Below are positions 797 through 62,520 of a DNA stretch of 64,000 nucleotides, piece after piece (positions within the stretch are counted from its first letter, which is position 1; every line of letters starts with the position of its first letter). This stretch comes from an uncultured Gemmatimonadaceae bacterium (GTDB lineage Bacteria; Gemmatimonadota; Gemmatimonadetes; Gemmatimonadales; Gemmatimonadaceae), in the NCBI GenBank assembly GCA_963829055.1, contig CAWHHI010000011.1:544001-608000 (forward strand). The letters are read 5' to 3'. A program made the translations under genes and the position numbers. Below the pieces are notes generated by a model. It worked only from the letters and a program-made list of their open reading frames with translations, was not told where the DNA came from and searched no databases.

Positions 797-2008
797 GTGA
801 ACGTGTTGATGCTCACGCCAATGGTGCCGCACGCCAATGCGCCGAGCGCTGGCGCCATCGTCATGCACGGGGAGCTGATGGCCGTGGCAGCACACCACGA
901 CGTCACGCTCGCCACACTCGCGACGTCGGCCGACGATTCCGCCATTCAGACATTGCGGGATTCGGGGCTTCGCGTGCACGCGGTGCCGCGTCGGCGCGAC
1001 CACGGCGTCGGCGCCCTCGTACGCCGAGGCACGCTCGGCATCCGCTGGCGCTTTGGGCACCTACCGTTGCGTACCCTCGTGTTCCACGAGCGGGCGATGC
1101 AAGCGACACTCGACCGACTTGGCGGCGTGCCGTTCGATGCGGTTCACATCATAGACAACGCCATGGCGCAATACCGCCGTCCGCGTGCGCGTACGACCCT
1201 GCTGTCCGAATACGAGGTGCGCGTGGACGCCGAAGACGGCATGGTCTCGGCGCGCGCGATGCGTTCCGCGCGCGACCGCGAGGCCGAGCGGCAGCGGTGG
1301 CGGCGCTACCAGTCGGAGGTGTGGTCGTCTGTGGACCGCGTGCAGGTGTTCACGGATCGGGATGCAACCACGGTGCGCGAGTTGGCTCCGCAGGCGTCCG
1401 GCCGAGTGTTCGTCAACCCATTCGGTGTGGACCTGCCCGCTTCCGTCGGACACGAGCCTCTGCCCGGGAGTCTGGTCTTCGTCGGCGGGTTCGCGCATCC
1501 GCCTAACGTGGATGCGGCCGTCTGGCTCGCGGAGACAATCCTTCCACTCGTGCGCGCCCGATGCCCCGGCGCCCGCCTGACGATCGTGGGTGCCGATCCG
1601 CCCGGAGCCGTACAACGGCTTGCCGGCGCCGAGACGGTGGTCACGGGACGAGTGGACGCCGTGGATCCCTATATCGACTCGGCGGAAGTGGTCGTGGCGC
1701 CGCTACGGTCGGGCGGCGGGATGCGGCTCAAGGTGTTGCAAGCCATGGCGCGAGAGAAGCCGGTCGTGACCACGCCGCGCGGCGCCGAAGGGATCTGGAA
1801 TCCACCGGGCGCGCCGACGCTTCGCGTGGCCGATGACGCAGAGGGCATTGCCGCACACATCGTCCAGCTGTTGGGGTCGCGCGAAGCACGCTGCACGTTA
1901 GGCGCGCGCGCCCGGGCGGCGGTCGCCGAGCATCACACGTGGGAGCAATTCGCCGAGCGTGTGGACGCGCTGTACGCGTCTCTGCCGGTTGCCGGAGCGG
2001 CCGCATGA
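797..2008 (+). CDS. GT4 family glycosyltransferase
   Basis: FVGGFAHPPNVDA and APLRSGGGMRLKVLQAMA motifs; GTG start at 797 chosen by eye. Confidence 0.88.
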   Translation: MNVLMLTPMVPHANAPSAGAIVMHGELMAVAAHHDVTLATLATSADDSAIQTLRDSGLRVHAVPRRRDHGVGALVRRGTLGIRWRFGHLPLRTLVFHERAMQATLDRLGGVPFDAVHIIDNAMAQYRRPRARTTLLSEYEVRVDAEDGMVSARAMRSARDREAERQRWRRYQSEVWSSVDRVQVFTDRDATTVRELAPQASGRVFVNPFGVDLPASVGHEPLPGSLVFVGGFAHPPNVDAAVWLAETILPLVRARCPGARLTIVGADPPGAVQRLAGAETVVTGRVDAVDPYIDSAEVVVAPLRSGGGMRLKVLQAMAREKPVVTTPRGAEGIWNPPGAPTLRVADDAEGIAAHIVQLLGSREARCTLGARARAAVAEHHTWEQFAERVDALYASLPVAGAAA

Positions 2009-2796
2009 GCGAATCCCGCCAGGGCGCGGTCCCGATTCTCATGTATCACCAGGTCTCGGACACGCCGCACGCGAATTTCGTCAAATACACGGTCACGCGA
2101 CGTGCATTTTCGGCGCAGATGAAGTGGCTGGCGGCTACGGGGTATGTCTCGATCGACCTCGGCAACTTGCTCGCGCATCGGAACGGCGGAACGCCCATCC
2201 CACCTCGCGCAGTGGTCATCACGTTCGACGACGGCTTTCGCGAGTGCGCCGAGCTGGCCGCGCCAGTCATGGAAGCAAGCGGACTGACGGCGACATTCTT
2301 CCTCGTCGCGGGTCTCATGGGCGAGACGAGTCGGTGGCTCGTGGCCGAGCGCGGGATCGAGCTGCCAATCATGTCGTGGGAGAACGCCCGCGCACTCGAG
2401 AATTCGGGACATCGGTGCGAATCACACAGCATGACGCACCCGAGACTGGCCCGTCTCTCGCCATCAGCGTGTCGAGATGAGCTGTCGCGCTCGCGCGCCG
2501 TGCTCGAGAACGAGCTCGGGCATCCGGTGCGCCACCTCGCGTACCCATTCGGTTCCGAGAGTGAGCACGTGCGGGAGATCGCCGCCGAGTGTGGGTACGA
2601 GTCCGGCTGTACGGTGGCCATCGGTCTTTCATCCAGTGCAGACGATCCGCTCGGCCTCCGCCGTGTCCCCGTGTTAGGCACCGACTCGCTGCTCGACTTC
2701 ATCTCGCGTTTGAGAACGGCGTACACGGTTCGTGACCGCCTCTCGGCGCTCGCAAGATCGGTGGTCGGTGCGGCGCCGAGCGGCGTCGACACGTGA
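2005..2796 (+). CDS. Polysaccharide deacetylase (CE4/NodB family)
   Basis: PILMYH, ITFDDG, SHSMTH, AYPFG motifs; ATGA overlap with upstream stop. Confidence 0.92.
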   Translation: MSESRQGAVPILMYHQVSDTPHANFVKYTVTRRAFSAQMKWLAATGYVSIDLGNLLAHRNGGTPIPPRAVVITFDDGFRECAELAAPVMEASGLTATFFLVAGLMGETSRWLVAERGIELPIMSWENARALENSGHRCESHSMTHPRLARLSPSACRDELSRSRAVLENELGHPVRHLAYPFGSESEHVREIAAECGYESGCTVAIGLSSSADDPLGLRRVPVLGTDSLLDFISRLRTAYTVRDRLSALARSVVGAAPSGVDT

Positions 2797-2806
2797 TCGG
2801 TGGTCG

Positions 2807-3797
2807 GTGAGCACACATCCTCGCGCGAGCATCGTGATCCCGACGCACCAGCGTCGCGAGTCGCTCGCGCGCGTGCTGCGCAGCCTCACGAGCCAGTCGC
2901 TGTCGCCTGACGAGTACGAAATCATCGTCGCCATTGACGGCTCGACGGATGGAACGCGCGAGATGGTCGAGGCGTCGCAGAGCGTCAGATCAGTGTGGAA
3001 GCCGCGCGGCGGACGTGCCTCGGCGTGTAACGCCGGCCTCAGGCTCGCGGCCGCGCCGATCGTCATCTTCCTCGATGACGACATGGAGGCGACGCCCGGC
3101 TTCGTCGCCGCGCATCTCGCCGTGCACGGCGCCACATCTGACGTCGGCGTAGTGGGCGCGGTGCCGATCGCGGTGGATGGCTCCGCGACGCTGGTCACCC
3201 GGTACGTCGCGAGCAAGTTCAACGGGCATCTCGAGCAACCTCGCGAAGCCCGGCTATGTGTTCGGGCTTCGAGACTTCTACAGTGGCAACTTCTCGGTGG
3301 CACGTGACGCGATGATCGCCGTTGGCGGGTTCGATGAGGCATTCGCGGTCTACGGCAACGAAGATCTCGACCTGTCGCTGCGCCTGCGTGCCAACGGCGT
3401 GCAACTCGTCTATTCGCCGGACGCCGTGGCGTACCAGCACTACGAGAAGGACTTCGCGGCGCTAGCGCGAGATACGCGGGAGAAAGGGCGGACGGCCGTG
3501 CAGCTCGCGCGGAAGCATCCGTCGTCGGCGGCGGACCTCAAGCTGTCGCAGTTCGATCGCGGGCCGTTGGTGGGTCGGCTTGCGCGCAACGCACTGCTGG
3601 CCGCCAGTAACTGGTGGCCGCGTACGCCTGACATCGTCGTGCGAACAATGTCATGGCTCGGGAACCGACGCGCGCCGGCGTTGCACCGCGTGTACCCGGT
3701 CGCGCTCGACTACCTGTACTGGTTAGGCGTGCGATCCGCTCGGGCAGGTGATGACGCCGTCACCGAACGTGGACCAACGACCGCGCCGGTTCCGTGA
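2807..3797 (+). CDS. GT2 glycosyltransferase, frameshift near 3239
   Basis: SIVIPTH..IDGSTDGT..FLDDD in one frame continues as SGNFS..GGFDE..YGNEDLDL in the next; one extra base. Confidence 0.85.
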
Positions 3798-4906: not shown

Positions 4907-6474
4907 CCGTCGCAAGCGCAGTGCAGCTGGCGGAGCGCGAACGCAATCGTCTTCTGCGTCGCGTGGACTGGCGATTCCTGCTCGCGCAGCCCGTGGTAGA
5001 TCGGGTGCTCTGCCTGGCCGGCGATGACCTGCGAGATGGATGTCGGCTCGTGGCGACGCACGTCGATGTCGCGCTCGCCGAGAGTAGCGGCCCATACAAT
5101 GTCGCCGTGACGCAGGACGCCGACGATGACACGCTGGCGAAGGTATTCGAGCGCCTGCGCGGCGGGGGAGAGCTATACAGCGAGTGGAGCACCGCGCAGG
5201 ACCACGACGGCATCCGCCGTCGTCTGGCTGTCGCTGGCTTCACCGACATACGGCTGTACTGGCCATGGCCAGCTCCACCTAACGCCGAAGTGTGGGTACC
5301 GCTCGACGCCCCGGTGGCCTTCGGTCACTACCTCGCGACCGATCGCCACGTGTACTCCGGGTGGCGCCACCGGCTTGGCACACAGGCGCGGCGCGCACTC
5401 GCGACCTGGCAGCTCGATTCAGGTCGAGTGGTCCCGCTCTGCGTCGTGGCTCGCGCGCGCGGCGACGCCGACGATCCCGCAGCCGAACCGGGCATTCTCC
5501 AGGCGGTCCGTGCATCGCGGCAGCTCGATCAACGCGAGGAGCGCCTAACGTGCGCGCTGCTGACCGGAGGCCCACGGGCGATCAGCAAGGTCGTTGGTCT
5601 CGTGTATTCCGACCATGCGCCCACTCCGGCGTTCGTCATCAAGTGGCCGCGGGTCGAAGAGTCCGCGGCGGGTCTCGAGCGTGAGGCCGAGGCGCTCGCG
5701 GCGTCTCACACCAGCGGTGTGGTCGTGGGCATCCCACGTCTGCTCGGCCGAACCGGGAGCGGCGTCAGGCTCGCCGTTGCGGAGACAGCGGCCCGCGGCG
5801 CGCCAATGTTCACCCGCGTGTCACGGGCGACGCTCGCACCGCTCGCCAGGGAGGGCGCGTCATGGCTCGCGGGTTTTCACGCAACGCATCGGCGCGCACC
5901 ATGTGACGCCGTGACGTGGAACGCTCGCACCACTCACGCCATCGCGCGATTCGCGGACACGTTCGACGCCGTCATCGATCCCGCGTTGCTGGACGAGACG
6001 ACGTCCGCGCTCGCGTTTCCCGGCGAAGGGATGGCGGACGTCATAGAGCACCGCGACTTCGGGCCGTGGAACATCCTCGTCGAGGACACCGGCGCGCTCA
6101 CGGTGCTCGACTGGGAATCATCGCGCGTCCATGGGTTGCCGCTGCTCGATCTCATCTACTTCGTCACGTACATGGCGTTCTTCGTGGATGGCGCAATGGT
6201 GTCTCGGCGATTCACCGAGTCGTATCGTGTGACGCTCGATCCGCGGAGCTCGACCGGTGCCCTGCGAGCGGAGTTGATGGAGCGGTATCGACAGCGGTTC
6301 GGTATCTCGGTGGCGATGGAGCGCGCGTTGCGTGCGCTCTGCTGGATCGAGCACGCGGACTCCGAATTCCAGCACTTCACCGCCGATGCGGGCGGACGTC
6401 CACCAGATGACGCGTTGCGCGCGAGCGTGTTCGTGCAGTTGTGGAAAGAAGAGATGGTCGCTCTCCGTCGGTGA
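4903..6474 (+). CDS. APH/choline-kinase-fold phosphotransferase with possible degenerate methyltransferase-like N-terminus
   Basis: FVIKWP, EHRDFGPWN and LDWE kinase motifs; N-terminal LRGGGEL..LAVAGF resembles the end of class I MTases. Confidence 0.7.
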   Translation: MTVASAVQLAERERNRLLRRVDWRFLLAQPVVDRVLCLAGDDLRDGCRLVATHVDVALAESSGPYNVAVTQDADDDTLAKVFERLRGGGELYSEWSTAQDHDGIRRRLAVAGFTDIRLYWPWPAPPNAEVWVPLDAPVAFGHYLATDRHVYSGWRHRLGTQARRALATWQLDSGRVVPLCVVARARGDADDPAAEPGILQAVRASRQLDQREERLTCALLTGGPRAISKVVGLVYSDHAPTPAFVIKWPRVEESAAGLEREAEALAASHTSGVVVGIPRLLGRTGSGVRLAVAETAARGAPMFTRVSRATLAPLAREGASWLAGFHATHRRAPCDAVTWNARTTHAIARFADTFDAVIDPALLDETTSALAFPGEGMADVIEHRDFGPWNILVEDTGALTVLDWESSRVHGLPLLDLIYFVTYMAFFVDGAMVSRRFTESYRVTLDPRSSTGALRAELMERYRQRFGISVAMERALRALCWIEHADSEFQHFTADAGGRPPDDALRASVFVQLWKEEMVALRR

Positions 6475-8195: not shown

Positions 8196-9296
8196 TCACG
8201 GCTTCGGTGGCATGGCGCGGCGACTGCGCGACTCGGTCGAGTCGTCCGCGCAGGGCGGCCAGGCGTCGTGAGCCCGGCAGGGTACGGGCAACGAGCGGAG
8301 CCGTTAGGCTCAGGCGATCGAGCGGCTCGGCGGTAGTCGCCATCGGACAAACGCCTGGCATGTTGCTTCAGCGTCGCGGCAATCGTGCGGGCGACGTCGT
8401 GTCTTCAGCGCGTCGGGGTCAGCGAGCATCCGCGGACTCGACGCACACAGCCGATCGAGTACCGCGAGTACGCCGTCGAGCGTGGTGACAAAGTCCGTCG
8501 GCGTAAGCGCCGACGCATCTCCCCGAACCAGTGCGCCCATCGCCGAGAGCGTGGCGGCCGACGGCACGGGGAGGCCTAACGACTCGAATGTTTCGCGCCG
8601 CGATGCGCACGACTTCCCCCGACTGGTCGCCTATGGTCGCCGTGAGCGTCGTCGCCCCCATGCGGTATCTCACGAGCGAGTCGGGCAGGTTGGCGACGCG
8701 ATGAGCCACTGCCAGCCGCGACCAGAGGTCGTAGTCCTGTGCGTAGACGAACGCCTCGTCGTAGTCTCCCATCGCGCGGACCACGGCAGCGCGAAACACG
8801 ACAGCCGAGTGAACGAAGGGGCAGTAGAAGTGGAGCACCCAGCGGATCCGGTCGTAATCCACCGGCAGCGTTCGGTCGCCGAGCAATGCACCGCGTTCGT
8901 CGATCTTCCGATATGCACGCGCCGACCAGCGCCACGTCGGGATTGGCGTCGAGAAACGCGACCTGGCGAGCGAGTCGATCAGGCTCCGAGACATCGTCCG
9001 CGTCGTGTCTGGCGATGAGCATGCCTCGCGCGAGCGCGAGGCCTCTATTCAGGCTGCGCGTCAACCCGATGTTCGTGGCGTTGCGCGTTATGCGGACGCG
9101 TGCGTCGGTGATCGCGCCGAGCACGCGCGGCGGTACCGTCGGTCGAGCCGTCATCGACGACGAGAAGCTCGAAATCGCCGAACGACTGGCCGAGCACGGA
9201 GTCGATGGCCTCGCGGAGATGCCGCTCGCCATTGAAGACCGTCATCAGCACCGTCACCCGAGGCGCGGTCTGCGGCGCACGCACGTCGTCGCTCAT
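8196..9296 (-). CDS. GT2 glycosyltransferase, several frameshifts; 3' end uncertain (may be fused to next GT2)
   Basis: [30 protein letters not shown] and PFVHS..AQDYDLW segments in three frames. Confidence 0.78.
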
Positions 9297-14831: not shown

Positions 14832-16323
14832 CCTCTCCCCCGCTCTTCTCACGGTCGCGCCACGCGTGGTCACAGAGGAGCGGCGAGGGGGGTTGGTGTG
14901 GGTGGACGCCCGCGGCCTGGACGCCGAGCACATTGCGCGCTCGGCGTTGGAAGTGTTGAGGGGGTTGGGATTGTCGAACGTGCGGGTGGGAGTAGGGCGA
15001 GTGCGCAGTCGTGGCGGAGATTTGGGCGGTGGCGGGAGCTGGGAACTGCGGACTGGGACCGAGGCTGCATGCTGCGGCTGCGCGCTGCCCGCTGCTGCCA
15101 ATACCGCCCCGTCACCCACGCAGCACACCCGCAGGCGACCAGCGACCAGCACGAGCGCCCAGCGACCAGTCAGTCCCCGTCCCCAATCCCCAGTCCCCAG
15201 TCCCGGTGAAGATTCGTTAGGCTCTCTCCCCGTCTCCGTTCTCGAGCCCGATCCCGCACTCGCTGCCCTGCTCGATGGCATTGGCGTCGAGACCTGCGGC
15301 GAGCTCGCGGCGCTCGCGGGGGAGTCCGTCGAGGTCCGGCTCGGCGCCGATGGCGTGCGATTGTGGAAGCTCGCGCGTGGCGATGACGACCGACTGATCT
15401 TCTCGCCCATCCCGCGCGCGCTGCCGCACGCATCGCTCGAGTGGAGCGACTACGTGCTCACCGACACTGAGCGGCTCCTCTTCTCGGTGAACGCGCTGCT
15501 CGGTACGGTGTGCGAGAAGCTGATTGATCGCGGATCGCTCGCGCGGGAGATGACGCTCGAGCTCCGGCTCGCGAGTGGCAACACGCTCACGCAGGGCATC
15601 CGCGCGGGCCGAGCGACGGCGAGTCGCAAGACGTGGCTGCGTCTCGCGCGGGCGACGCTCGAACGGATGGTGCTTCCCGCAGGCGTCGTCGGCCTAACGC
15701 TGTACGCGGCGGCGGTCGTAACGGACGAGGGAAACCAGGGCGATCTCTTCGACCGCGGCTTCGCGACCGCCGCCGCGACGGAGGCGGCACTCGCGTCGCT
15801 GGCGGAAGAACAGGGCGACGTGGTCGTGGTGCCGGAGAATACGGAGCATCCGCTGGTGGAGCGGAGAACGAAATGGGTCGGAAAGCGGGAACCGGGAACG
15901 GGCCGGCGGAAAGCGGAAGGCGGACGGAGGAAGGCGGTGAAGCCTAACAAGCCGACTGCAGCAACCGGCGAGCAGCCTGCAGCCCCAGTTCCCAGTTCCC
16001 AGTTTCCTGTTCCCCGTCTATCAGTCGATTCCCAGATCCCGGCTCCTGATTCCCGACTCACTCTTTACCTGCTTCCGACACCGCGTGCCATCGAGGCGCG
16101 CACGGAATCGCGACGCGATCACATCGTGCCGACTGCCTATCGCGACGGCGGGGCGTGGTATGGAATTCTCTCGGTTGCGGGACCCGATCGCGTGTCCGGC
16201 GAGCGGTGGGGCGAAGGCTACGCGCGCGAATACTTTCGCTGCATTGTCGACGACGGAGGCATGGTGTGGCTCTACCGTGATGCACGAGCGGACGGGTGGT
16301 ACATCCATGGCTGGTGGGATTGA
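14776..16323 (+). CDS. imuB: ImuB, inactive Y-family polymerase homologue with repeat-derived inserts
   Basis: LDGIGVETCGELA, clamp-binding-like QGDLF, C-terminal GPDRVSGERW..REYFR..WLYR..WYIHGWWD. Confidence 0.85.
   Translation: MFVCLWSPAWRTVADSLADLSPALLTVAPRVVTEERRGGLVWVDARGLDAEHIARSALEVLRGLGLSNVRVGVGRVRSRGGDLGGGGSWELRTGTEAACCGCALPAAANTAPSPTQHTRRRPATSTSAQRPVSPRPQSPVPSPGEDSLGSLPVSVLEPDPALAALLDGIGVETCGELAALAGESVEVRLGADGVRLWKLARGDDDRLIFSPIPRALPHASLEWSDYVLTDTERLLFSVNALLGTVCEKLIDRGSLAREMTLELRLASGNTLTQGIRAGRATASRKTWLRLARATLERMVLPAGVVGLTLYAAAVVTDEGNQGDLFDRGFATAAATEAALASLAEEQGDVVVVPENTEHPLVERRTKWVGKREPGTGRRKAEGGRRKAVKPNKPTAATGEQPAAPVPSSQFPVPRLSVDSQIPAPDSRLTLYLLPTPRAIEARTESRRDHIVPTAYRDGGAWYGILSVAGPDRVSGERWGEGYAREYFRCIVDDGGMVWLYRDARADGWYIHGWWD
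15033..15204. repeat. Repeat element inside imuB, homologous to intergenic 37750-37927
   Basis: ggctgcatgctgcggctgcgcgctgcccgctgctgc..acccacgc..cgcag..accagcacga..cccagc..ccccagtccccagtcc is colinear with 37781-37927. Confidence 0.8.
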
Positions 16324-16409: not shown

Positions 16410-17306
16410 ATGACTATTCATACGATCCTCCTTCCCTACGACTCTGGCCACCGCGACGCCCGCATGGGGCGTGGGCCACTGCACTTACGCGAACGTGGCG
16501 CGCTCGATCGACTGCGCGCGGCGGGGCACGATGTCATCGAATCGCTCGTCGAAGCGCCTGACGCGTTCCCGACCGAGATCGGGACCTCGTTCGCGCTCTA
16601 CCGGGTGCTGGCTGAGGACGTCCGCGCGACCGTGACCGGCGGAGCCTTTCCGCTCACTCTCGCCGGGAACTGCGGCAGCGCACTCGGCACCGTGAGCGGG
16701 GTGCGGGCCGCCACGCCTAACGACCGTTCGGATGTCGGCGTCATCTGGCTCGATGCCCACGCCGACTTCAACACGCCCGAGACAACCGCGACCGGCTTTC
16801 TCGATGGCACAGCACTCGCCGCACTCGCGGGCCACTGCTGGCACACGCTCACGGCGTCCATTCCCGGCTTTCGCCCGGTGTCCGACGCCCACGTCGTGCT
16901 CGTCGGCGCACGCGACCTCGACGCCGGCGAGGAAACCGCTCTCGCGCGATCACAGATCGCGCGCGTCGAGGCGGCACGGATGCAGTCAGACGGCGCCCAG
17001 GCTGCGCTCGACGATGCGCTGACCACGCTCGCCCGCCGCCACATCTCGCGCGTCTACCTGCACATCGATCTCGACGTCCACGAACCAACCGACGCTCAGG
17101 CGAATCAGTACGCGGTCCCGGGTGGTCTTTCCCCGAGCACGGTGCGCGACCTCGTCAGCGTCGTCGCCGATCGCTTCGAGATCTCCGCGGCCGCACTCAC
17201 GGCGTACGATCCGGCGTACGACGCGGACGGACGAATGCTGAACGTCGCAATGGAGTTGATGGGACGCGTCGCGAGCGTGTCATCCCGGGTGAAGCGAGAG
17301 ATCTAG
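16410..17306 (+). CDS. Arginase/ureohydrolase family protein
   Basis: GNCG, WLDAHADFN, GARDLD, YLHIDLDVH motifs. Confidence 0.9.
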   Translation: MTIHTILLPYDSGHRDARMGRGPLHLRERGALDRLRAAGHDVIESLVEAPDAFPTEIGTSFALYRVLAEDVRATVTGGAFPLTLAGNCGSALGTVSGVRAATPNDRSDVGVIWLDAHADFNTPETTATGFLDGTALAALAGHCWHTLTASIPGFRPVSDAHVVLVGARDLDAGEETALARSQIARVEAARMQSDGAQAALDDALTTLARRHISRVYLHIDLDVHEPTDAQANQYAVPGGLSPSTVRDLVSVVADRFEISAAALTAYDPAYDADGRMLNVAMELMGRVASVSSRVKREI

Positions 17307-21980: not shown

Positions 21981-22141
21981 CGACAGCGGGCGTTAGGCGC
22001 GCCAACGAGCGCGCGACGTCCGGCGTCCGACGAAAGGCCGATTCACCCCCCAACCATCGTTGGGGTCAAGTCCAGCCATCCGACCAGCCCCGTTGTGAAC
22101 GACGCCAGGCAAATTGCGCGCAGCATTCAACCCATTTGCCC

Positions 22142-39993: not shown

Positions 39994-40003
39994 CGGACGC
40001 GTC

Positions 40004-47447: not shown

Positions 47448-48624
47448 ATGAAGCGATCCTCCTCGCAGCGGCGCGCAGCGTTCCCTACGCTCGAGCCACC
47501 CGAACCGCCAAAGCAGCTCTCCGCACTCGAGACGCCCGTCGCCATCGTCGACCTCGACCGGCTCGCGCAGAACCTCGATCGGATGGCGTCCTACTGCACG
47601 TTGCACGGGTTGGCGCTCCGCCCGCACGTCAAGACGCACAAGTCACCCCGCATCGCCGCCGACCAGCTTCGACTTGGCGCGGTCGGGCTCACGTGCGCGA
47701 CGCCGCGCGAGCTCGAAGTCATGGGCGACGTGTCGCACGACCTGCTGCTCGCGTATCCGCTCGTCGGCGCGACGAAGCTCGCTCGCGTCATGTACATCCC
47801 GCACCAGGTGAAGCTGACCGTCTCGCTCGATTCGACCGCCGCTCTCGGACAGCTCTCGGCGGCGACGAAGGTCTCGCAGCGCGAGGTCGACGTGTACGTG
47901 GAGATCGACCTCGGCATGCATCGCGTGGGCGTGCAGACGCCAGCCGAGGCGGTGACGATCGCGCGTCAGATACTGCAGCAACCACCGCTCAACTACGCCG
48001 GCATCGCGTTTTATCCGGGCCACGTGCGCGAGCATGCGAACGACCAGGACGCGAGCATGGCGCAGCTTCGCGCGGACCTCGCTCGCGTACATCGGCGAGC
48101 TCGATCGTGCCGGCGTGCATCCGCGTGTGGTGAGTGGTGGCTCGACGCCGACGGCGTGGCGGATGCACGAAGTGCCGGGCGTCACCGAGGTGCGGCCCGG
48201 GACCTACGTGTACAACGATCGCACGACCGCCGAGATCGGAGCGTGCGGGTGGGAAGACTGCGCGCTGACGGTGTTGGCGACCGTGATCAGCCGCGCCGTG
48301 CCCGGCCAGGCGGTCATCGACGCCGGCACGAAAGCGTTAGGCAGAGAACCCATGCGCGGGGTCGCGGGCGAAGGATTCGGCGTCGTGATGGATCACCCGG
48401 ATATCGTCGTCGCGCGGATGTCGGAGGAGCACGGCATCCTCGACCTCTCGAAGTCGGACTGGAACCCGCAGGTGGGCGATCAGGTCCGGATCATCCCGAA
48501 CCACGTCTGCATCGTCGTGCACCTGAACGACGTGATCTACGGCGTCCGGGATTCCATCGTGGAGACCAGCTGGATGGTCGCTGCACGCGGGCGGCTCGAG
48601 ACCGAGGCCGGCATTGAAGGCTGA
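47448..48624 (+). CDS. D-threonine aldolase/DSD1 family PLP enzyme; frameshift near 48080
   Basis: LRPHVKTHK, GMHRVGV, SGGSTPT, EVRPGTYVYND, DAGTK, SEEHG, PNHVC. Confidence 0.9.
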
Positions 48625-48772: not shown

Positions 48773-48774
48773 GC

Positions 48775-49413
48775 CTAACGCGTCACGCGGATCGAGATCC
48801 GCACCTCATCGCCGATGACGACGAACAGCGGATCCAGCCGACGTATGCCAGTCGGGACGCCGACGCCGTAGGCTCGGCGCGACAGCGTGACGTCCGCCGC
48901 AAGCTGCCCGGTGTTCGTGATGTCGTCGATCGAGCAGCGAAGCTCCTCCGTCCGCGTCACGCCGCGAATCGTGAGCGAGCCCGGCACCGCCACGTAGTTC
49001 GGGAGACGCATCACATCGCCGCCACGGAACGTGATCGCCGGATGGCGCGCCGCGTCCAGAAACAGTGGCCCGCGCAGGTGGCGATCCCGGAGTGAGATGC
49101 CTGTGCGCAGACTCTCCGCCAATATCTCGACGGTCACCGCCACCGTGTCATCGTCATTCGCCGGGACGTGAATGGTGCCGCGCACATCCATGAACCGGCC
49201 GCGGACGAGCATTCCACCGAGCCACCGGACCGACATCGTGACGACGACGTTCTCCGGCGTTAGGCGGATGGGTGTCGTGCCGAGCGGCGCGAGCCACGAC
49301 CAACGGTCGCCGAGCGCGGCACCCGCACCGTCGCGGGTAGCGGCACGTCGGCGCCCCGGTCGCGCGGAACCGGCGGATCGTGACCCGCCACCAGGCCTGG
49401 ATTCAGACTCCAT
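48775..49413 (-). CDS. YceI family protein
   Basis: VRGRF, SLRTGISLRDRHLR..FLDAARHPAITF, GSLTIRGVTR. Confidence 0.88.
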   Translation of the reverse strand: MESESRPGGGSRSAGSARPGRRRAATRDGAGAALGDRWSWLAPLGTTPIRLTPENVVVTMSVRWLGGMLVRGRFMDVRGTIHVPANDDDTVAVTVEILAESLRTGISLRDRHLRGPLFLDAARHPAITFRGGDVMRLPNYVAVPGSLTIRGVTRTEELRCSIDDITNTGQLAADVTLSRRAYGVGVPTGIRRLDPLFVVIGDEVRISIRVTR

Positions 49414-49853
49414 CAGTTTCGCTGCGCCCCCTGCTCGATCCAGCGGACGATCGTCTCGATCTGGTTCGACGTGAGCGGCTGAGTGGCGAGCGGCATACGA
49501 CTGTGCCCCTGTCGCGCCGCGTCGTCGGCGCTGATCATCGTCACGAGCCACGACCGGTTCGGTTCGGTCGGACGCACGCGCACCTCACCTGGCCGGAGCG
49601 TAGATGGCACGCCGACGATCGCGTCGTACGCCGCGCTCGGATCCAACGTGAGCCCGGCCTGATGCGTGGCGAGGGAGTGACAGCCACCCGTCGCGCAGCG
49701 CTTATCGAAGATCGGCACGACGTTCGCCGAGAACGATGGCGTCGGCACGAGGTCATCGGGCGCGCCGCCGGTCGGATCCACGGACGTTTCGAAGTCGACA
49801 CAGCCTAACGCGCCACCGAGCAGGCCAAGCGCTGCCATTGTCCGCATCACCAT
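49413..49853 (-). CDS. Lipoprotein with CX4CH putative heme-binding motif
   Basis: LGC lipobox; FSANVVPIFDKRCATGGCH, RMP, IVRWIEQGA. Confidence 0.72.
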   Translation of the reverse strand: MVMRTMAALGLLGGALGCVDFETSVDPTGGAPDDLVPTPSFSANVVPIFDKRCATGGCHSLATHQAGLTLDPSAAYDAIVGVPSTLRPGEVRVRPTEPNRSWLVTMISADDAARQGHSRMPLATQPLTSNQIETIVRWIEQGAQRN

Positions 49854-50860
49854 AGATGGACGCCCGCCAGCGCACGCACCGTCAACATGCTGCCGGGAGC
49901 GTAGTAGAGCTCGGCCGCGAGGCGCGTCCGCGGAAACCCGAGCCACGATGTGCCGGCCGTTCCGTAGGCGCGCGTCGTCGTGACCTCGAGGATCGGCTGG
50001 TCAGGATCGCGCGTGCCATCCGTGCGGATGACGCCGATGTCGAACCGCGTGCGCTCAGCGCGGGCGCCGGCGGACGCGTACGGCTGCCAGCGTCCACTCC
50101 CCGACGCGCGCGCGAACAGCAGCTCACCCGACACATGGTTCGGCTCGAAGAAGTCGCGACTGTCGTTGTCGTAGCACACGAACGTGAAGTACGTCGCGAG
50201 TGCGGCAGTCCCCTCCGCCGCCGTCTCGCGATTACAGGTGATCGGTCCTTCCACTCGGCCCGTGAGGAACGACGCGCGCGGGACGACTCTCACCCCTAAC
50301 GAGGTGGTGAAGGATCGCGAGATTGCACCCGCCAGGAGATTCGCCTTCACGTCGAACACCTGCAGCGGAGGAATCCAGCTCAGCTCGAGCCCGATTCCAC
50401 CAGGGAGCCGAGCACCGACGCGCGGGCGTACGAACATCGGCGCGAGGTTCGTCGACTCAGGCTTGTCGGAACCCGTCGTCCGCTGCTCCGACGAGAGCGG
50501 AGGCAGGTACGAGAGCTCGAGTGCCGCCTCGAAGCGCGATGAGGCACTGCCTGGTGCACGATCCGATGCGACCGCCATCGCCGACGGACGATCGGCGCCG
50601 AACGGCACGCCCAGCGGTGAGAACGCCACCGTGGACGAGTAGTACAGCATGAGCTTCGCCTCTGGCGCGCCTGGGCCATAACTCTTGATCTCTCGTGGCT
50701 GGGCGACGAGCCCAGCCGACGGGAGCATCGAGCCTAACGCGACGAACAAACGTACGATGGTCTGTCCGGTAGTGTCTCTGCGAATTCGCCGTTGGCTCGT
50801 CGTGTTGCGTCCGACCTGCTGACGCCTACTGCTGCCCGACGTGCGTCGCGGCTCCCGCAT
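49847..50860 (-). CDS. Hypothetical outer-membrane beta-barrel-like protein (start uncertain)
   Basis: Alternating amphipathic strands, C-terminal Trp; overlaps neighbours. Confidence 0.6.
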   Translation of the reverse strand: MREPRRTSGSSRRQQVGRNTTSQRRIRRDTTGQTIVRLFVALGSMLPSAGLVAQPREIKSYGPGAPEAKLMLYYSSTVAFSPLGVPFGADRPSAMAVASDRAPGSASSRFEAALELSYLPPLSSEQRTTGSDKPESTNLAPMFVRPRVGARLPGGIGLELSWIPPLQVFDVKANLLAGAISRSFTTSLGVRVVPRASFLTGRVEGPITCNRETAAEGTAALATYFTFVCYDNDSRDFFEPNHVSGELLFARASGSGRWQPYASAGARAERTRFDIGVIRTDGTRDPDQPILEVTTTRAYGTAGTSWLGFPRTRLAAELYYAPGSMLTVRALAGVHLW

Positions 50861-53989: not shown

Positions 53990-55068
53990 TCAGCGCCGAA
54001 CCGCGGTGGTCTCGAGCAGCGCCTTTCTGACGGCATCGGCCTTCCCTGCCCGGCCGAGCGCCGCCCACAAGCGCTCGACGGTATCCTCGTCGACCAGCCC
54101 GGCCGGCGAGCCTAACGCCGGCAAGGAGAGCTTCTCGGCGGCACGAAACGCGTCGACGGCCGCGATCGTTTCGGGCGTGTAGATCAGCGCGTCCGGCGTA
54201 TCGCGCTTGAGCTCAGTCTCGTTAGGTCGGAAGTGGCCGAGTGCGTGCAGCATCACCTTGAGTTGCCAGAATGTCCGCGCCCGTGAACTGCTCGAGCTGG
54301 CGGAAGCCAAGCGTCTGCGAGATCGTGTTGTAGATGCGCCGGAGCTCGGCCACCGGCTCGGGGTTCTCGCAGACGTTGATGTTCGCGGTGACGCCGTCCG
54401 CGCGACGCGAGCGACCCGGCCGAGGGTCCGCGACGATGACGGCGGCGGATTGCGTGCGGCCTTTGCGCGCGTCGCCGCCCTTGGCGTGGCCCGCCGCAAT
54501 CGCGTCGATGAGGCGATCCGCGAGATGCCGCGGCGTGCCCTCGCTCGCCTCGAACGACGCCGCCACTGCCTCGATGACCTCGGGGCCAACGAGCAGATTG
54601 CCCTGCGTCACGTAATTCTTGCCGGCGCGATTGCCCGCCCAGACGCTGTTGCCCGTGCCGGTGTACTGGGCGCTCTTGCCGTTGACCGCGATGACACCGA
54701 TCTGACGCGAGATGGCCTGCGAATCCGCGGCCAGCGCACGGTCGAGCGCACGCGCCGGCTCCTCGCCCTTGGCCAGCGCGTCGAGCAGAATCTGCCCGTA
54801 CTCGGTTCGCGTGTTCGCCTGCGTCGCGACCGCACCCACGCCAGCGCGGACCCAGGGCACGCCATTGCCGACGCACGGAACGCGAGTCGTCACGGCGACG
54901 CCGACCTCGCCAGTCCGCGGGTCGATCGCCGCGATGGAGAACGTGTGGAACTCGAGCGCGTCGCGCGTCGGGCGTGCCCCACGCCGCGGGCTCCTGGGCC
55001 GCCAGGGGACGACGGCCGCCAGCGACCGTGAGAAGAGCGATGGACAGGAGAACCGGATATGAACGCAT
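53990..55068 (-). CDS. DUF1028 Ntn-hydrolase-like protein with C-terminal peptidoglycan-binding-like domain; frameshifted
   Basis: HTFSIAAID..GVAVTT, GAVATQA, QGNLL, GGDARKGRTQSAA; signal and C-terminus in other frames. Confidence 0.82.
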
Positions 55069-55268: not shown

Positions 55269-56742
55269 ATGGTCAAGTACGCAGTCCTCGGCGCGTTGCT
55301 CGTCGGCGTTGCCGCATGTCAGGACTCCACGTCGCCGCGTGCCACCGCGGAATCGCCGTCTCGATTGCCAGCTGGCGTGAGCGCGTCGCAGGGCGCCGCG
55401 CAGAATGACTACATCGTCACGTTGCGGGACGACGAGCCGGATCCGGACGGTCAGGCGAATGCGCTGGTGAAGGCGCATGGCGGCTCGCTCAAGCACGTCT
55501 ACCGCGCGGCGCTCAAGGGATTCGCGGTCGGCAACCTGCCGGATGCCGCGGTCGAAGCGCTGCAGCGCAATCCGCGCGTCGCGAGCATCGAGCGGGATGG
55601 CATCATGACAGCGGACGGATCAGGAACTCAGACGGGCGCAACGTGGGGGATCGACCGTATCGATCAGCGGGATCGCCCCGTTGACGGCGTCTACAACTAT
55701 GATGCGGACGGGTACGGGCGTCACCGCGTACATCATCGACACGGGCATCCGCATCACGCATAGCGAGTTCGTTGGACGCGCGAGCAGTGGGTACACCGCG
55801 ATCAACGATGGGAATGGTACGAACGATTGCAACGGGCACGGTACCCACGTCGCCGGCACGGTTGGTGGATCGACGTACGGTGTCGCGCAGAACGTGACGC
55901 TGGTGGCGGTCCGCGTGCTCGATTGCAGCGGGAGCGGCTCGCACGTCGGGCGTCATTGCCGGAATCGACTGGGTGACGGCAAACGCGCATGCGCCGACGC
56001 GGTCGCGAACATGAGCCTCGGCGGAGGATTTTCGTCGGCGCTCAACACCGCGGTCGCGAACTCGGTCGCTGCCGGCGTGACGTACGCGTTGGCCGCTGGC
56101 AACAGCAACGCGAACGCGTGCAACTACTCGCCGTCCAGCGACGCCTAACGCGATCACGGTCGGCGCGACGACGAGCACTGACGCCAAGTCGTCGTTCTCG
56201 AACTACGGTACCTGCGTCGATATCAACGCGCCGGGGTCGTCGATCACGTCGTCCTGGAATACGAGCGACGTCGCGACGAACACGATCAGCGGGACGTCGA
56301 TGGCATCGCCGCACGTGGCGGGAGCGGCAGCGGCGTACCTATCCGCGCACCTCAATTCGACCCCGGCTGCGGTCGCGACCGCGCTCACGAGCGCCGCAAC
56401 GACCGGGCACGTCACGGGTTGCCTGCCGGCACACCGAACCTGCTGCTCTACACGCATTTCAGCGGCGGCGGTAGCACAGCCACCACCGTCCGGCCCAGTC
56501 GCGAGCTTCACGAAGTCGCTGCAACGAATTCACGTGCACGTTCACGCAGCACGTCGACCGGGTCATGCCGTCGTACGCTGTGGACGTTCGGCGACGGACA
56601 GACCGGATCGACGACGAGCTCAGTCGACCCGCACGACTACGGCCCGCCAGAGCGGACGGTTACACTGACGGTCATCGCAACGACGGCCGGGAGCACGAGC
56701 ACCTCACAGACCGTGAGCTGCAACCCGAAGAAGTGCCAGTAA
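55269..56742 (+). CDS. S8 subtilase (aqualysin/proteinase K type) with I9 propeptide and PKD-like tail; several frameshifts
   Basis: [30 protein letters not shown] catalytic motifs; WTFGDG; VAAC lipobox. Confidence 0.88.
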
Positions 56743-56869: not shown

Positions 56870-57009
56870 TGTCGTGAGTCGTGAGTCGTCGGTCATCCGA
56901 GTTTTCAGTCTCGCCTGGCGAAAGGCTACGAACCGCCACTGCTGCGGTGCTACTCATGACTCGACTGATGACTGATGACCCACGACTGGCCGACTGAGAA
57001 CTCACGACA
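56870..57009. repeat. Imperfect palindrome with heptamer arms (GTCGTGA/GTCATCA family)
   Basis: tgtcgtgagt..actcacgaca ends; gtcgtga x2 on the left, tgactga repeats on the right. Confidence 0.65.
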
Positions 57010-57057
57010 GGCACGAACGTCCGCGATGGCAGCCCTCTCGGGTCCTCGCACGATCGC

Positions 57058-58219
57058 CTAACTCGAGAACCGCGTCATGCGGAACATTGACAGATCGTAC
57101 CGCGGCTGCCGAGCCGGTCACGAGGTCGACTACGATCTCGCCGACCGCCGTCGCGAACTTGAAGCCGTGGCCCGAGCACGCGCTGACGACCACCACCCGA
57201 TTCGAGTGCACGGGGTGGACGTCCACGATGAAGTGCAGGTCCGGAGTATTCGTGTAGAGGCACACCTGCGATTCGCGCAGGCGCCCCTTCGCGTGAGGCA
57301 TGAAGCGACGGAGCAGGTCGGTCGCCTGCGCATCCTCGGCCGTCGACGTGCGCCGGTCCACCTGGTCCGGATCCACGGGCCGTCCCTGATAGTGCACGCC
57401 CGCCTTTACCCCGTCGCCAAAGTCCGGCAGCGTGTAGAACACGCGGTCCGGGCCATACTCCCAGAGCGTCACCGGGCAGCGCTGCGGCGTGAAGTCCGCG
57501 TCGTGCGACGCCGGCTCGAACCAGTGGATGGGCTGCCTAACGACGCTCAGCACGCCCGTCAGCTCCGGCACGAGCTGGCCCATCCACGCACCCCCCGCGA
57601 GCACCAGCTGGCCCGCGCGATACTCCCCGCGGGTCGTCGTGACGCGCACACCGTCGTCGGCGGCCTCCCACGACACCACCGCCTCATCACGGAGCAGCTC
57701 AGCGCCGGCGTTCGTCGCGCGCGCGAGCATCGCCGTGATGCAGTCCTCCGGGAAGAGGACACCCGCTCGTTCCTCGAGCACGCCGACCATGTCGTCCAGC
57801 GGCTGAAGCACCGGGAACTGACGACGAACGCCAGTCGCCGAGAGGACCTGATGCGGCACCTTGAACGCCGCCGCGCTCGCGCGGGCGCCGCGCACGAGCG
57901 TGCCGTCCTCCGGGCCAATGGTGATGCCGCGCGTCTTCACGTACAGCGGACGACCGATCGACCGCTCGAGCTCACGCCAGAGGTCGAACGCGCGGCGCAC
58001 GACTGGCACGTACGCCGGATGCTCGAAGTACGCTTCGCGAATGATCCGCGTACGCCCGTGCGATGAGCCGAGCGTGTGCGGCGGAGCGAACCGGTCGATG
58101 CCTAACACGCGACGCGCCGGCTGCCCGGGACGCGTGAGCGAATACACGGACGCGCTCCCCATCGCGCCGAGTCCAACGACGATCACGTCGAACGGCCGGT
58201 CGGCGCGCGAGGCGGTCAC
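57058..58219 (-). CDS. solA: N-methyl-L-tryptophan/monomeric sarcosine oxidase; frameshift near 57105
   Basis: VVGLGAMGS, GSSHGRTRIIR, CLYTNTPD, CSGHGFKF; corrected end YDLSMFRMTRFSS*. Confidence 0.9.
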
Positions 58220-58233
58220 AGGATAGATGGTCG

Positions 58234-59697: not shown

Positions 59698-60918
59698 TCA
59701 CCCAACGTCCTCCGACGAGATATCGGGGTCGACGACCACCGTCGGCGCGCGCTTCGTCTCGACGCCTGGCGTGTCCGCCTTCACACCGGTCGCCCCTTCA
59801 TCGTCGCGCTTCTCCCCGCCAATCTCGGCGAGCGCGTCCGACGCGATCCACCCGTGCATGGCCGCGTGTTTTGCGACGGCGAGCGTGTCGTCAGCAAGCA
59901 CGAGCGTCGATCCTGCCTGCTCGATCTCGCGTGCGAGCGCTTCGATGCGCGACAGGCGCTCTGCATGCGGTGTCACGTTGCGAATGTACACGGCCTTCAC
60001 GCGGCCCGGCCGCTCGCGCACGAGCTCCGCGTAGATCTCCGGATCCTCCTGGCCGCTGTCACCAACGAGCAGAAACGGCATTTCCGGGTAGGTGTCGAAG
60101 ATCTCGCGAATCACCGTGCCCTTGTGCCGCGCGTGGCGCTCCGAGAGCCGACCCAGATCCCAGTCACGCAGCAGCAGCGGACCGGTTGGTATCCGCTGCG
60201 CCTCGAGAAACCCGTCGATGACGTCGTACAGATTCCACGGGCTGCTCGACACGTAGAAGATGGGATTCGCTTCCGCGCCAGTCGCGCCACGCTCGAGCGC
60301 TCGATAGAACGCGGCGACTCCTGGGAACGGGAGGCGTGTCAGCGCGTTCTCGAGCAGCACCATGCGCGCCGCCCGGAGGAAGCTCGTGACCTCCGACTGG
60401 AGCACCGTGTCATCCATGTCGCTCACGACCCCGAACGTCGCCGTCGGCGCGGGCGTGAGGATGCGCGTCGTGGCGCGAACCGGAACGGCGTTAGGCGGGT
60501 CGGCCAGGTCGAGCGACACGGTGTGCCAGCCGTGCGGCGTGAACGGCGCGTCGGTCGCCGCGAGCCAGCGACGCAGGAAGCCTTCGTTGTCGGCGATGAT
60601 CTCGTCGTGCCCGGCGTGCGTCGACGCGGCCGGGCGCGCGCGAACCCGGGCGAATGGCAGTGGATCGCTCTCCATGCGCCGCAGCGAGGAGATCAGATTG
60701 CGCCACCGCGACTGGCTGGGATCTGGCGCGCGGACTCCTTCGTCCTGCAGCACGCGTCCGAGCACGAGCGCCCGATCGGCGGTGCCGTACCCGCGATACC
60801 CGACGATCTGGATGGGGTCGCGATCGATCGCGCGGCCGATGGCGCCGGCGGTGCGCCGGGCTTGCCACGCGAGCTCGCCGAAAACACCAAGGAGGTCGTC
60901 ACGCCAGTGGGCCGCCAT
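59698..60918 (-). CDS. App1-like phosphatase (DUF2183)
   Basis: VVSDMDDT, YVSSSPWN, LVGDSGQEDPEIY. Confidence 0.9.
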   Translation of the reverse strand: MAAHWRDDLLGVFGELAWQARRTAGAIGRAIDRDPIQIVGYRGYGTADRALVLGRVLQDEGVRAPDPSQSRWRNLISSLRRMESDPLPFARVRARPAASTHAGHDEIIADNEGFLRRWLAATDAPFTPHGWHTVSLDLADPPNAVPVRATTRILTPAPTATFGVVSDMDDTVLQSEVTSFLRAARMVLLENALTRLPFPGVAAFYRALERGATGAEANPIFYVSSSPWNLYDVIDGFLEAQRIPTGPLLLRDWDLGRLSERHARHKGTVIREIFDTYPEMPFLLVGDSGQEDPEIYAELVRERPGRVKAVYIRNVTPHAERLSRIEALAREIEQAGSTLVLADDTLAVAKHAAMHGWIASDALAEIGGEKRDDEGATGVKADTPGVETKRAPTVVVDPDISSEDVG

Positions 60919-60974: not shown

Positions 60975-61503
60975 CAGACGAACGGAGCGCACGGATTCGA
61001 CCGATCCAACGGATTGACTCCTCTGTCATCCCGAGGTGCGCGGGAATCCGGCGTGCGGAAGCATGACGAAGACCTTCTCGATCATTCTCGGGTGGGTCCG
61101 TTCACGCGAATACGGTTGGGTCTCTAAATCCAACAGCGACGCAGAATACGCAGGCGCGCTGGGCGCGCAACGCAGAAGGACGCAGAAAACTGCAACTCAT
61201 GTTCGAGACAGCCCGCATCTCGGCGGGCCGTGAAAAAGGGGAACGACCTCCGGACGCACTGGCCCGCCCGAGGTCGTTCCCCTTTTCAAAGGCCTGGCGC
61301 ACCGCCGGCGTCCCGAGCGGCCGTTTTCTGCGTCCTTCTGCGTTGCGGCCGCGAAGCGGCCGCCTGCGTATTTCTGCGTCGCTGTTGGGATCGCGCGTTC
61401 CACTCTGCTCCACGGCGCGTCCAGCCCTTGCCCGGGATGACAAAGCGTCTCGTGACATGGAATCAATCCGCTCGATCCCCAGCATCCGTGTGCCGTCCGT
61501 CCG
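60975..61503. repeat. Four nested inverted-repeat elements
   Basis: Arm pairs 60975-61021/61459-61503, 61024-61033/61433-61442, 61130-61193/61320-61388, 61231-61256/61265-61288. Confidence 0.88.
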
Positions 61504-61569
61504 GCCTGCCTAACGCTGCAGGCCGACGGCAGGCTGTCACGTTACGCGTGCGTTACGCGTGCGCGCCGC

Positions 61570-62334
61570 TCACGTGCGGAAGGCACTCGCGAGCACAGGC
61601 AGCGCACCCGCCAGCCATATCACGACGCCCGCGATCGCCGCCTTACCTCGACTGATCTTTCCTGTCACGGCCAGCCCGATCACGAGGAGGACGGTCACCC
61701 AGATCGTGAACAGGTCGATGCGGCCCAGCAAGCCGAGCACGACGGGCGACGTCGTGTCGGCATCCAGGAATCGCCCGATGCCGAGCGACAGACTGAAGCG
61801 GTTGTCGAGCGAGTCAGGATCGACGAACAGGCCCTGCACGCGCGCCACCACGCCTTCCACGATGCGCGGCACGTAGGAGAACGTCGCGACGACCATCGCC
61901 GCGTTCAGCGTCTGCTTCGCGTCGAAAAACTTTCCGACGACCCACAGCACGAACCCGATGAACAGCATGGCGATCGGCGGCCCGACGAACGCGCCGACGA
62001 GCGCGAACTTCGTGGCGAATTTGGACGCTGCGGCGATCTGGTCAGGCGTGAGCTTGTTGCCCTGGGCGCTCTGAGCCATCCCGCGCGCGAACTCCGCCTC
62101 CATGATCGGCTCGAACACATCGCGGTTGGCGAGGAACAGGCCTCCCACGATCACCGTGATGATGATCAGCGGAACCCAGAAGTCGCGGTTCGCGCGTCGA
62201 GCGAACACGGACGACGGCGAATAGAAGATGTCCATGAAGTCGTCGAGCAACGACGACTTCTCGGCTTTTGCGGGCGGTGCGGACGGCGGAGAGTCGATTC
62301 CGGGGCCGCGGTCGGACGTCGAGGGTTGGGTCAT
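61570..62334 (-). CDS. Yip1 family membrane protein
   Basis: IFYSPSSVF, FWVPLII, IDLFTIW; five hydrophobic segments. Confidence 0.85.
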   Translation of the reverse strand: MTQPSTSDRGPGIDSPPSAPPAKAEKSSLLDDFMDIFYSPSSVFARRANRDFWVPLIIITVIVGGLFLANRDVFEPIMEAEFARGMAQSAQGNKLTPDQIAAASKFATKFALVGAFVGPPIAMLFIGFVLWVVGKFFDAKQTLNAAMVVATFSYVPRIVEGVVARVQGLFVDPDSLDNRFSLSLGIGRFLDADTTSPVVLGLLGRIDLFTIWVTVLLVIGLAVTGKISRGKAAIAGVVIWLAGALPVLASAFRT

Positions 62335-62520
62335 GGCTCGGTGGCGAGGGCGTTGGGAAGATGGAGCGCCCGTCCACATGTGTCCAGCATCCGTCCAGCG
62401 TACGCGCCCGTCACGCGCCGCCGTCACCCGAGAGGGCGGAACGAAATGTGGGGAGGACAGCGTGGCGTTCAGCCCCGCGCCTCCCCTCGACACATTGCCG
62501 GAAACGTTAGGCTGTGAAGA

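Follow-up and report, generated by a model that had tools for sequence, protein, structure and literature searches.

A dispersed octamer of Gemmatimonadaceae is spelled as the integron R-box and resembles DNA uptake words

To our knowledge, there are only two bacterial families in which experiments have proved genome-wide self words to be uptake signals. The octamer HIP1 (highly iterated palindrome 1, GCGATCGC) of cyanobacteria is a long-standing puzzle, Chi and KOPS (FtsK-orienting polar sequences) are strongly co-oriented with replication and few-fold enriched, and the R-boxes of integron attC and attI sites follow the consensus RYYYAAC/GTTRRRY. Here we analysed a non-palindromic octamer, GCCTAACG/CGTTAGGC (hereafter the word), which recurs throughout a 64-kb window (the whole stretch of DNA given above, C11:544001-608000 of assembly G000) and throughout the genome to which this window belongs. 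Comparison of its DnaE2-like protein places G000 among metagenome-assembled genomes (MAGs) of Gemmatimonadaceae.

The closest likeness is to the uptake signal sequences (USS) of Pasteurellaceae and the DNA uptake sequences (DUS) of Neisseriaceae. Like them, the word is short and non-palindromic, occurs about once per 1-1.5 kb on both strands equally, lies mostly in genes and in several frames, tolerates single-base changes in a graded manner, is restricted to a lineage, is conserved at orthologous sites and is accompanied by uptake genes. Like USS, it also distorts codon and peptide usage, a distortion described in the accessible text of PMC2817400. The analogy would extend to preferential uptake and to a receptor, both of which are only putative for the word.

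The assembly (7,784,024 bp in 20 contigs, 66.7% GC, 85.9% completeness, 3.95% contamination) carries 5004 copies (2457 + and 2547 -), which make the word the 14th commonest octamer despite its containing TAA. An order-3 Markov model predicts 257 copies, and the same model with the word masked predicts 60, an 83-fold excess; by z-score the word ranks first among all octamers. It is found on 20/20 contigs, at 0.48-0.80 copies/kb. In the window, where GC content is 0.65-0.69 throughout, there are 43 exact octamers (24 +, 19 -), against a mean of 0.90 and a maximum of 4 in 100 dinucleotide-preserving shuffles, and 65 CCTAAC/GTTAGG hexamers (38 +, 27 -) vs 5.84 expected in shuffles. The span from 1501 to 62512 holds all of them, the 43 octamers and 22 further hexamers, at about one octamer per 1.5 kb. 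The counts, the hexamer strand split, the frames and the named coordinates of an earlier sequence-only reading of the window all proved right. That reading had proposed a genome-wide signal and knew of no such motif described for this lineage. The excess persists under a Markov null (5004 vs ~60, motif-masked order-3). In our literature searches, which did not extend to subscription journals, the exact octamer matched no paper, the papers listed for its 7-mers were unrelated (primers, DtxR boxes), and none of those listed for Gemmatimonad terms describes the word.

Flanking positions carry at most 0.13 bit of information, and therefore the word is not a repeat element; a longer hidden motif and conserved flanks were looked for and rejected. 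Single-base variants are enriched by degrees (ACCTAACG 21x, CCCTAACG 14x, GCATAACG 9x, GCCTAACA 17x): tolerance follows G>A>C at position 1, C>A at position 3 and G>A at position 8, the other positions are strict, and changes at positions 2, 4 and 7 are at or below expectation. This graded tolerance is reminiscent of a binding-site matrix. Conservation beyond the core and a mostly intergenic location, the marks of repetitive extragenic palindromes (REP) and miniature inverted-repeat transposable elements (MITE), were not seen, with 69% of copies inside gene calls.

These calls come from a crude caller of our own, trained on codon usage and covering 80% of the genome. Called genes contain 3450 copies (1612 sense, 1838 antisense), while 1574 of the 5004 lie outside gene calls, in 20% of the genome. 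Ten within-gene synonymous shuffles that keep both protein and codon usage yielded 86-131 sense and 50-69 antisense copies (136-184 in total), and resampling synonymous codons from word-masked usage yielded 63-87 and 18-22, respectively. The excess thus persists under a codon-usage-preserving null, one that the sequence-only reading had named (coding 3450 vs ~170 in amino-acid-preserving shuffles). Copies occur in each of the four readable frames and in intergenic DNA. Of the 2639 TTA codons, 1200 (45%) fall within the word, which also spells 843/1828 (46%) of x-Pro-Asn-G.. contexts, 583/1278 (46%) of nGC-Leu-Thr contexts, 1199/5295 (23%) of [SPTA]-Leu-Gly contexts and 441/4266 (10%) of x-Val-Arg-C.. 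contexts. Stop codons within the word amount to 157/619 for TAA and 120/1264 for TAG. In small samples of 35,000-53,000 residues, the tripeptide Pro-Asn-[VADEG] reaches 2.00x its expectation in G000, 2.67x in G014 (rich in the word) and 1.48x in G010 (intermediate), and 1.11x and 0.90x in G068 and G124 (poor). The signal acts at the DNA level, overriding codon preference and changing proteins, with a pull on the proteome strong enough to double a tripeptide.

We then compared orthologous sites among six species of the genus, which differ by 14-30% in nucleotides over the compared region. Over ~20 kb, the word was kept in 50/74 pairwise comparisons (70-86% identity), and all other 8-mers in the same alignments were kept in 15-21%, so that the word is retained ~3.7x more often; the species being related, these counts are not independent. 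Conservation of the kind that the sequence-only reading had suggested looking for is hence present, and the word is actively maintained. In the DnaE2-like gene of the window (17458-20622), two of five word sites are identical in all six species; where the word is missing, the allele is mostly a synonymous neighbour, for example GCCGAACG. The dispersed copies arose by point changes within ordinary genes.

Within the window, 35/43 octamers lie inside called open reading frames (ORFs), 6 between gene calls, and 2 supply a stop codon. The 35 are read as x-Leu(TTA)-Gly (16), Pro-Asn (9), x-Leu(CTA)-Thr (5) and Val-Arg(AGG) (5), the remaining frame of the word on each strand being closed by TAA or TAG. 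They sit in housekeeping genes with no relation to one another, which encode glycosyltransferases, a DnaE2-like polymerase, protein kinases, peptidases and transporters. The octamers of the window, by position and strand, are:

1501..1508, +: glycosyltransferase ORF 773-2005(+), Pro-Asn
1896..1903, -: ORF 773-2005(+), x-Leu(TTA)-Gly
5543..5550, +: ORF 4903-6471(+), x-Leu(CTA)-Thr
8302..8309, -: between gene calls
8574..8581, +: ORF 8422-8994(-), Val-Arg(AGG)
15215..15222, -: ORF 14776-16320(+), x-Leu(TTA)-Gly
15692..15699, +: ORF 14776-16320(+), x-Leu(CTA)-Thr
16715..16722, +: arginase-family ORF 16410-17303(+), Pro-Asn
17543..17550, -: DNA polymerase III alpha (DnaE2-like) ORF 17458-20622(+); present in 5/5 other species of the genus
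17796..17803, +: DnaE2-like ORF, Pro-Asn; present in 4/5 other species, GCCGAACG in the fifth
18771..18778, +: DnaE2-like ORF, Pro-Asn; common to 1/5 other species, the others having GCCGAACG or ACCGAACG
19022..19029, -: DnaE2-like ORF; present in 4/5 other species
19517..19524, -: DnaE2-like ORF; present in 5/5 other species
21991..21998, -: between gene calls
23528..23535, -: GNAT ORF 23181-23855(+), Val-Arg
24373..24380, +: ORF 23681-24433(+), Pro-Asn
24527..24534, +: TetR ORF 24445-25059(+), x-Leu-Thr
25654..25661, -: protein kinase ORF 25070-27238(-), Pro-Asn
26057..26064, +: protein kinase ORF 25070-27238(-), x-Leu-Gly
28747..28754, -: protein kinase ORF 27453-29603(+), x-Leu-Gly
29561..29568, -: ORF 27453-29603(+), Val-Arg
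30824..30831, +: peptidase S51 ORF 30740-31924(-), x-Leu-Gly
31036..31043, -: ORF 30740-31924(-), Pro-Asn
31604..31611, -: ORF 30740-31924(-), x-Leu-Thr
33279..33286, +: ORF 31813-33654(-), Val-Arg
34149..34156, +: peptidase M20 ORF 33615-34868(-), x-Leu-Gly
38938..38945, +: HEAT-repeat ORF 38722-40113(-), x-Leu-Gly
39196..39203, +: ORF 38722-40113(-), x-Leu-Gly
39489..39496, -: ORF 38722-40113(-), Pro-Asn
39817..39824, +: ORF 38722-40113(-), x-Leu-Gly
41935..41942, +: ORF 41446-42174(-), x-Leu-Gly
44068..44075, -: Na/sulfate symporter ORF 42954-44471(+), x-Leu-Gly
48335..48342, -: ORF 48034-48621(+), x-Leu-Gly
48773..48780, +: its complement is the TAG stop of YceI ORF 48778-49551(-)
49258..49265, -: ORF 48778-49551(-), x-Leu-Thr
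49803..49810, +: between gene calls
50732..50739, +: ORF 49850-50860(-), x-Leu-Gly
54110..54117, +: between gene calls
56143..56150, +: supplies the TAA stop of ORF 55681-56145(+)
57535..57542, +: ORF 57005-59179(-), Val-Arg
60489..60496, -: ORF 59701-60918(-), Pro-Asn
61508..61515, +: between gene calls
62505..62512, -: between gene calls

The DnaE2-like gene, a second DNA polymerase III alpha with PHP, NTPase, finger and HHH_6 domains, is 84-86% identical in nucleotides among species of the genus and was our test gene for ortholog comparisons.

An artefact or neutral by-product of assembly, contamination, codon or mutation bias, or a mobile repeat could in principle generate such a word. Three word-free segments at contig ends suggest a partly chimeric MAG, and a few dozen copies do belong to attC sites. 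Against this, the word is confined to neither a contig nor a read set, being present on every contig of G000 and in dozens of independently assembled genomes; its excess persists under Markov and codon nulls, its unconserved flanks are not those of a repeat element, it is kept at orthologous sites, and single-step repair bias cannot enrich an 8-mer 83-fold. We regard an artefact as practically excluded.

To follow the word across relatives, we called rich any genome with at least 1000 copies. All 7 genomes of the genus are rich (2501-5112 copies), as are 61 of 301 sampled genomes of the family, with up to 7821 copies. Many others are intermediate, making density continuous, and many hold 2-60 copies, below a reversed control word. 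In a phylum sample of 201 genomes, the only enrichment outside the family was in the sister-family genus g110 (181-1061 copies, 5/5 genomes), the other 157 non-family genomes having at most 91 copies; G030, of a third family, has 345. In G014, from another genus, the same word was found in 20/20 sampled contigs with an identical ranking of variants. The family and phylum tallies of the word and the family tally of the integron integrase include ten unpublished genomes (G013, G051, G052, G150, G264, G282, G309, G351, G378 and G447), none of them rich, which enter our claims through denominators only. On a ComEC tree of 56 genomes (a single gene, midpoint-rooted), placing the rich label takes 8 changes, of which well-supported branches force no fewer than 4, compared with 19 on average for shuffled labels. 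Genomes rich in this one word occupy at least 4-8 separate positions on the tree, and the poor G049 is nested there among the rich g47 and g80. Dozens of rich, intermediate and poor genomes within one family make up a natural experiment for tracing the reader through correlation along the phylogeny.

We tentatively favour, short of an even chance, a word of the USS/DUS kind that is sustained by a bias in the uptake or recombination of DNA. The octamer would be a genome-wide 'self word', and a sequence-specific step acting on DNA, not on RNA or protein, would favour word-bearing alleles, so that point mutations creating the word would spread and existing copies would be retained. That step would most likely take place during natural transformation, with uptake and/or recombination biased towards DNA of the same or close species, which is the molecular drive proposed for USS and DUS, and the density of the word in a lineage would reflect how active this bias is there. 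We infer that a protein reads the word and that the favoured step is uptake or recombination. The sequence-only reading had also posited a protein reader; its genome-wide signal stands, and the reader is putative. As the letters of the word are those of the integron R-box, its reader may have been adapted to the integron recombination system or have arisen from it. The uptake machinery of G000 includes ComEC, DprA, a PilQ-like secretin and three type IV pilin genes.

Several results weigh against biased uptake. ComEC scores over its cut-off in 28/28 rich and 27/32 poor genomes, and a ComEA-type HHH_3 domain is found in 59/60 genomes of our panel; with both spread over rich and poor genomes, competence genes do not tell the groups apart, and, in contrast to USS and DUS, related genomes with the same competence genes lack the word. 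The ComEA of G000 is a weak 81-residue HHH_3 match only, and none of the candidates searched proved to be a specificity factor for the word. Unlike the DUS of Neisseriaceae, the word has no dialects: the 4-8 or more separate rich lineages share exactly the same octamer, and no alternative word was found in the poor genomes G068 and G124. A lack of dialects fits a reader of fixed specificity, e.g. one tied to the universal integron R-box, and this identity with the R-box is itself a departure from USS and DUS. The inverted-pair terminators typical of DUS are nearly absent: only 40 pairs of copies lie within 60 bp, and a hairpin on C18 is the sole terminator noted in G000. We were also unable to demonstrate that mobile DNA of G000 is free of the word. 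If biased uptake is nonetheless true, the word would be a third, independent case of an uptake word, in an abundant, barely cultured soil phylum.

Some observations touch on these points. The C18 hairpin (C18:97494-97548, L277) is a perfect 55-nt structure whose ends are the word and its complement, just past a gene end. The apparent word of G124 turned out to be a tandem heptamer array and not a dialect: its (CTGCTTT)n arrays, arranged as inverted pairs ~50-130 bp apart (L154, 600-700 and 5690-5810; L155, 13100-13280; L158; L159), are an unrelated intergenic repeat. As a further comparison we considered the Ssn/NTS system, which in the accessible text of PMC11893778 is a 28-nt intergenic hairpin repeat and hence not comparable.

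The most telling feature of the word, which the sequence-only reading missed, is that it is the R-box (core site) of integron attC sites. In poor sister-family genomes, its few copies are clustered on one strand ~550 bp apart (26/27 copies in G021:C95, L129/L130, 1-24000; 8/8 in G019:C3, L131), and in each case a conserved ~95-nt hairpin has the word as its first eight bases and ends in TGTTAGGC, with short ORFs between the hairpins. These clusters are textbook integron cassette arrays, in which the word is the attC R'' box. The dense sister-family arrays L129/L130, L131, L132 and L133 carry one ~95-nt attC per ~550 bp and no ORF of at least 400 aa in 20 kb. G000 itself encodes an integron integrase at C20:208041-208958(-) (265.7 bits vs a cut-off of 265, TIGR02249), and its attC arms, GCCTAACGC...ACGTTAGGC, match all 8 bases of the word on both arms. 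Its attC sites are spread loosely over C20:103-208 kb, a span of ~100 kb on the 3' side of the integrase, with ordinary genes between them (L174-L178); C20:103000-209000 is a chromosomal integron. Small integrase-less attC groups lie at C9:209700-210300 (L274), C10:178100-179800 (L275) and C20:890462-890555 (L276). For the plain-octamer cassette site at C9:209.7-210.3 kb, part of such a small array, the other species offered no synteny.

The core of the word, GCCTAAC/GTTAGGC, fits the R-box and is identical to the attC arms in L129, L131 and C20 of G000, a letter-for-letter identity with the R'' and R' boxes of both G000 and the sister-family arrays. The accessible text of bioRxiv 10.1101/2022.09.11.507474 describes the R and L boxes and the AAC cleavage triplet of the integrase, and the strictly kept bases of the word include this triplet. 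The dispersed copies differ from attC sites in that they have no L-boxes, partner arm, hairpin or conserved flanks: an R''-L''...L'-R' hairpin of ~55-140 nt was found at a few dozen sites only, and the dispersed copies are not attC sites. A genome-wide hairpin search for attC sites was swamped by chance inverted pairs. That the word and the integron core site share one spelling suggests a mechanistic link between transformation and the capture of cassettes.

The word could alternatively be read by the integron system or a related tyrosine recombinase, its 5000 double-stranded R-boxes serving as binding or landing sites (attI- or attG-like) that would open the entire chromosome to gene cassettes, or in another recombinase function. 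The spelling of the word and its strict AAC triplet speak for this, as does the insertion of cassettes by integrases at double-stranded genomic sites (bioRxiv 10.1101/2022.09.11.507474, accessible text), and recurrence of the same word in separate lineages fits a universally specific reader. However, the genomic sites reported in the same text require only GWT, landing pads inside genes should be harmful, and the abundance of the word does not follow the integrase. TIGR02249 matches were found in 165/301 family genomes, comprising 39/61 rich vs 126/240 others. The integrase was not found in five rich genomes that are at least 95% complete (G065, G109, G123, G198 and G227), although 'not found' in a MAG is not absence and integron contigs often drop out of MAGs. 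The near-complete poor genomes G008, G068 and G075 do have the integrase; it is therefore neither necessary nor sufficient for word richness. Taking both sides together, we regard a recombinase reading of the dispersed copies as unlikely. We also entertain, as a rather improbable idea, that uptake or recombination machinery is tuned to the integron R-box, so that transformation would preferentially import cassettes and the 5000 copies would be both its footprint and an attI-/attG-like field. Uptake sequences and integrons, so far studied apart, would then be one gene-capture device, which would explain why separate lineages converged on the same word.

Methylation, one of the options of the sequence-only reading, leads to HIP1. 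A HIP1-type signal, nucleoid-organising or linked to methylation, would be read by an orphan enzyme or a chromosome-structuring protein. The word resembles HIP1 (accessible text of PMC4390886 and PMC13756078) in being an octamer of very high copy number and density, used in all frames, hyperconserved, quasi-evenly spaced and patchily lost within its group; HIP1 is now itself proposed as an uptake signal in the accessible text of PMC13756078. The two differ in that HIP1 is a palindrome tied to two orphan methyltransferases, whereas the Gemmatimonadaceae word is non-palindromic and four word-rich genomes (G065, G099, G109 and G090) have no match in any of the four canonical DNA methyltransferase families searched, which disfavours methylation. 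In our panel, three families are no commoner in rich than in poor genomes: N6_Mtase (PF02384) was found in 16/29 rich and 19/32 poor, N6_N4_Mtase (PF01555) in 9/29 and 21/32, and D12 methylase (PF02086) in 10/29 and 19/32. All three of these amino-methyltransferase families are missing in 8 rich genomes, 4 of the 5 of these tested also having no C5 methylase, and in G000 neither C5 methylase nor Vsr was found. No candidate structural protein was identified, and altogether a HIP1-type role appears quite improbable to us. A methyltransferase regular-expression search of the G000 proteome returned, as judged by eye, only a THUMP-type RNA methylase look-alike. Across the 61-genome panel, whose members are related, word-rich genomes tend to have fewer DNA methyltransferases, which is only a hint of rich lineages with few restriction barriers.

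As for the other candidates, VirB4 was found in 1/60 panel genomes, and none of IntI, ComEC, ComEA, VirB4 and the four methyltransferase families separates rich from poor genomes by presence or absence; the sequence-only reading had proposed to look for a correlation with competence, methyltransferase or integrase genes. Twelve clusters of the word were inspected as possible neighbours of an autoregulated reader gene and showed no pattern.

Chi, KOPS and architecture-imparting octamers are likewise non-palindromic octamers over-represented genome-wide, and single-base variants of E. coli Chi are partly active. A helicase-nuclease or strand-discrimination system that needs ~1 site/kb in either orientation could read the word as a Chi-like or repair signal. 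The word's own variants would then be partly active too, it is kept at orthologous sites, and such a site would promote its own spread by biasing how incoming DNA recombines. Its spacing, more even than random, also fits: gaps of at most 100 bp make up 1.4% vs 6.3% expected and gaps of at most 200 bp 4.4% vs 12.3%, and gaps of 0.5-2 kb are in excess. Against it, the 83-fold excess is far beyond the enrichment known for any Chi site, and RecC (TIGR01450) was not found in G000, which is 86% complete and in which AddAB/AdnAB were not searched; the recombination/repair option of the sequence-only reading, taken as a RecBCD-type Chi, is unsupported. Replication polarity points the same way. In 50-kb bins of positive GC skew there are 327 + and 377 - copies (46% +), and in those of negative skew 624 + and 603 - (51% +), a correlation of -0.19 between orientation and skew; neighbouring copies share orientation in 52% of cases. 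Contig C16 alone shows a modest shift, 99/146 vs 209/185 on either side of the skew switch. Replication polarity of the word is at most weak, and beyond the C16 effect we rejected polarity by replication or transcription; strand-polarised runs in G226 and G065 were not real, being an effect of match listing. The core inference of the sequence-only reading, a genome-wide signal that resembles USS, DUS and HIP1 and differs from polarised Chi and KOPS, is borne out. We consider a Chi-like role very doubtful.

Stretches free of the word are informative about the assembly itself. The three largest deserts, C6:5440-55037, C11:1-46789 and C6:591808-623330 (L166-L173), all lie at contig ends and carry genes for FtsK, chorismate synthase, FolD, DAHP synthase and others, some of them split, which have second copies elsewhere at 46-59% identity. 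C19:1-11556 (L270) resembles them. These contig-end deserts are probably chimeric joins to another organism, not islands. There are 20 other gaps of at least 9 kb, for a total of 23 vs 14 expected, and the seven mid-size gaps that we annotated contain mostly ordinary genes. Deserts as islands were rejected, the contig-end ones being second housekeeping sets and the mid-size ones barely above chance. As a sharp marker of 'own' DNA, the word reveals in G000 contig ends that probably come from another organism. A further 24-kb stretch of lower GC (0.63), with a single copy of the word, harbours a gene for replication initiator protein A (RPA family) at C3:431600-432500 (L268:9616-10464), and may be an integrated plasmid remnant.

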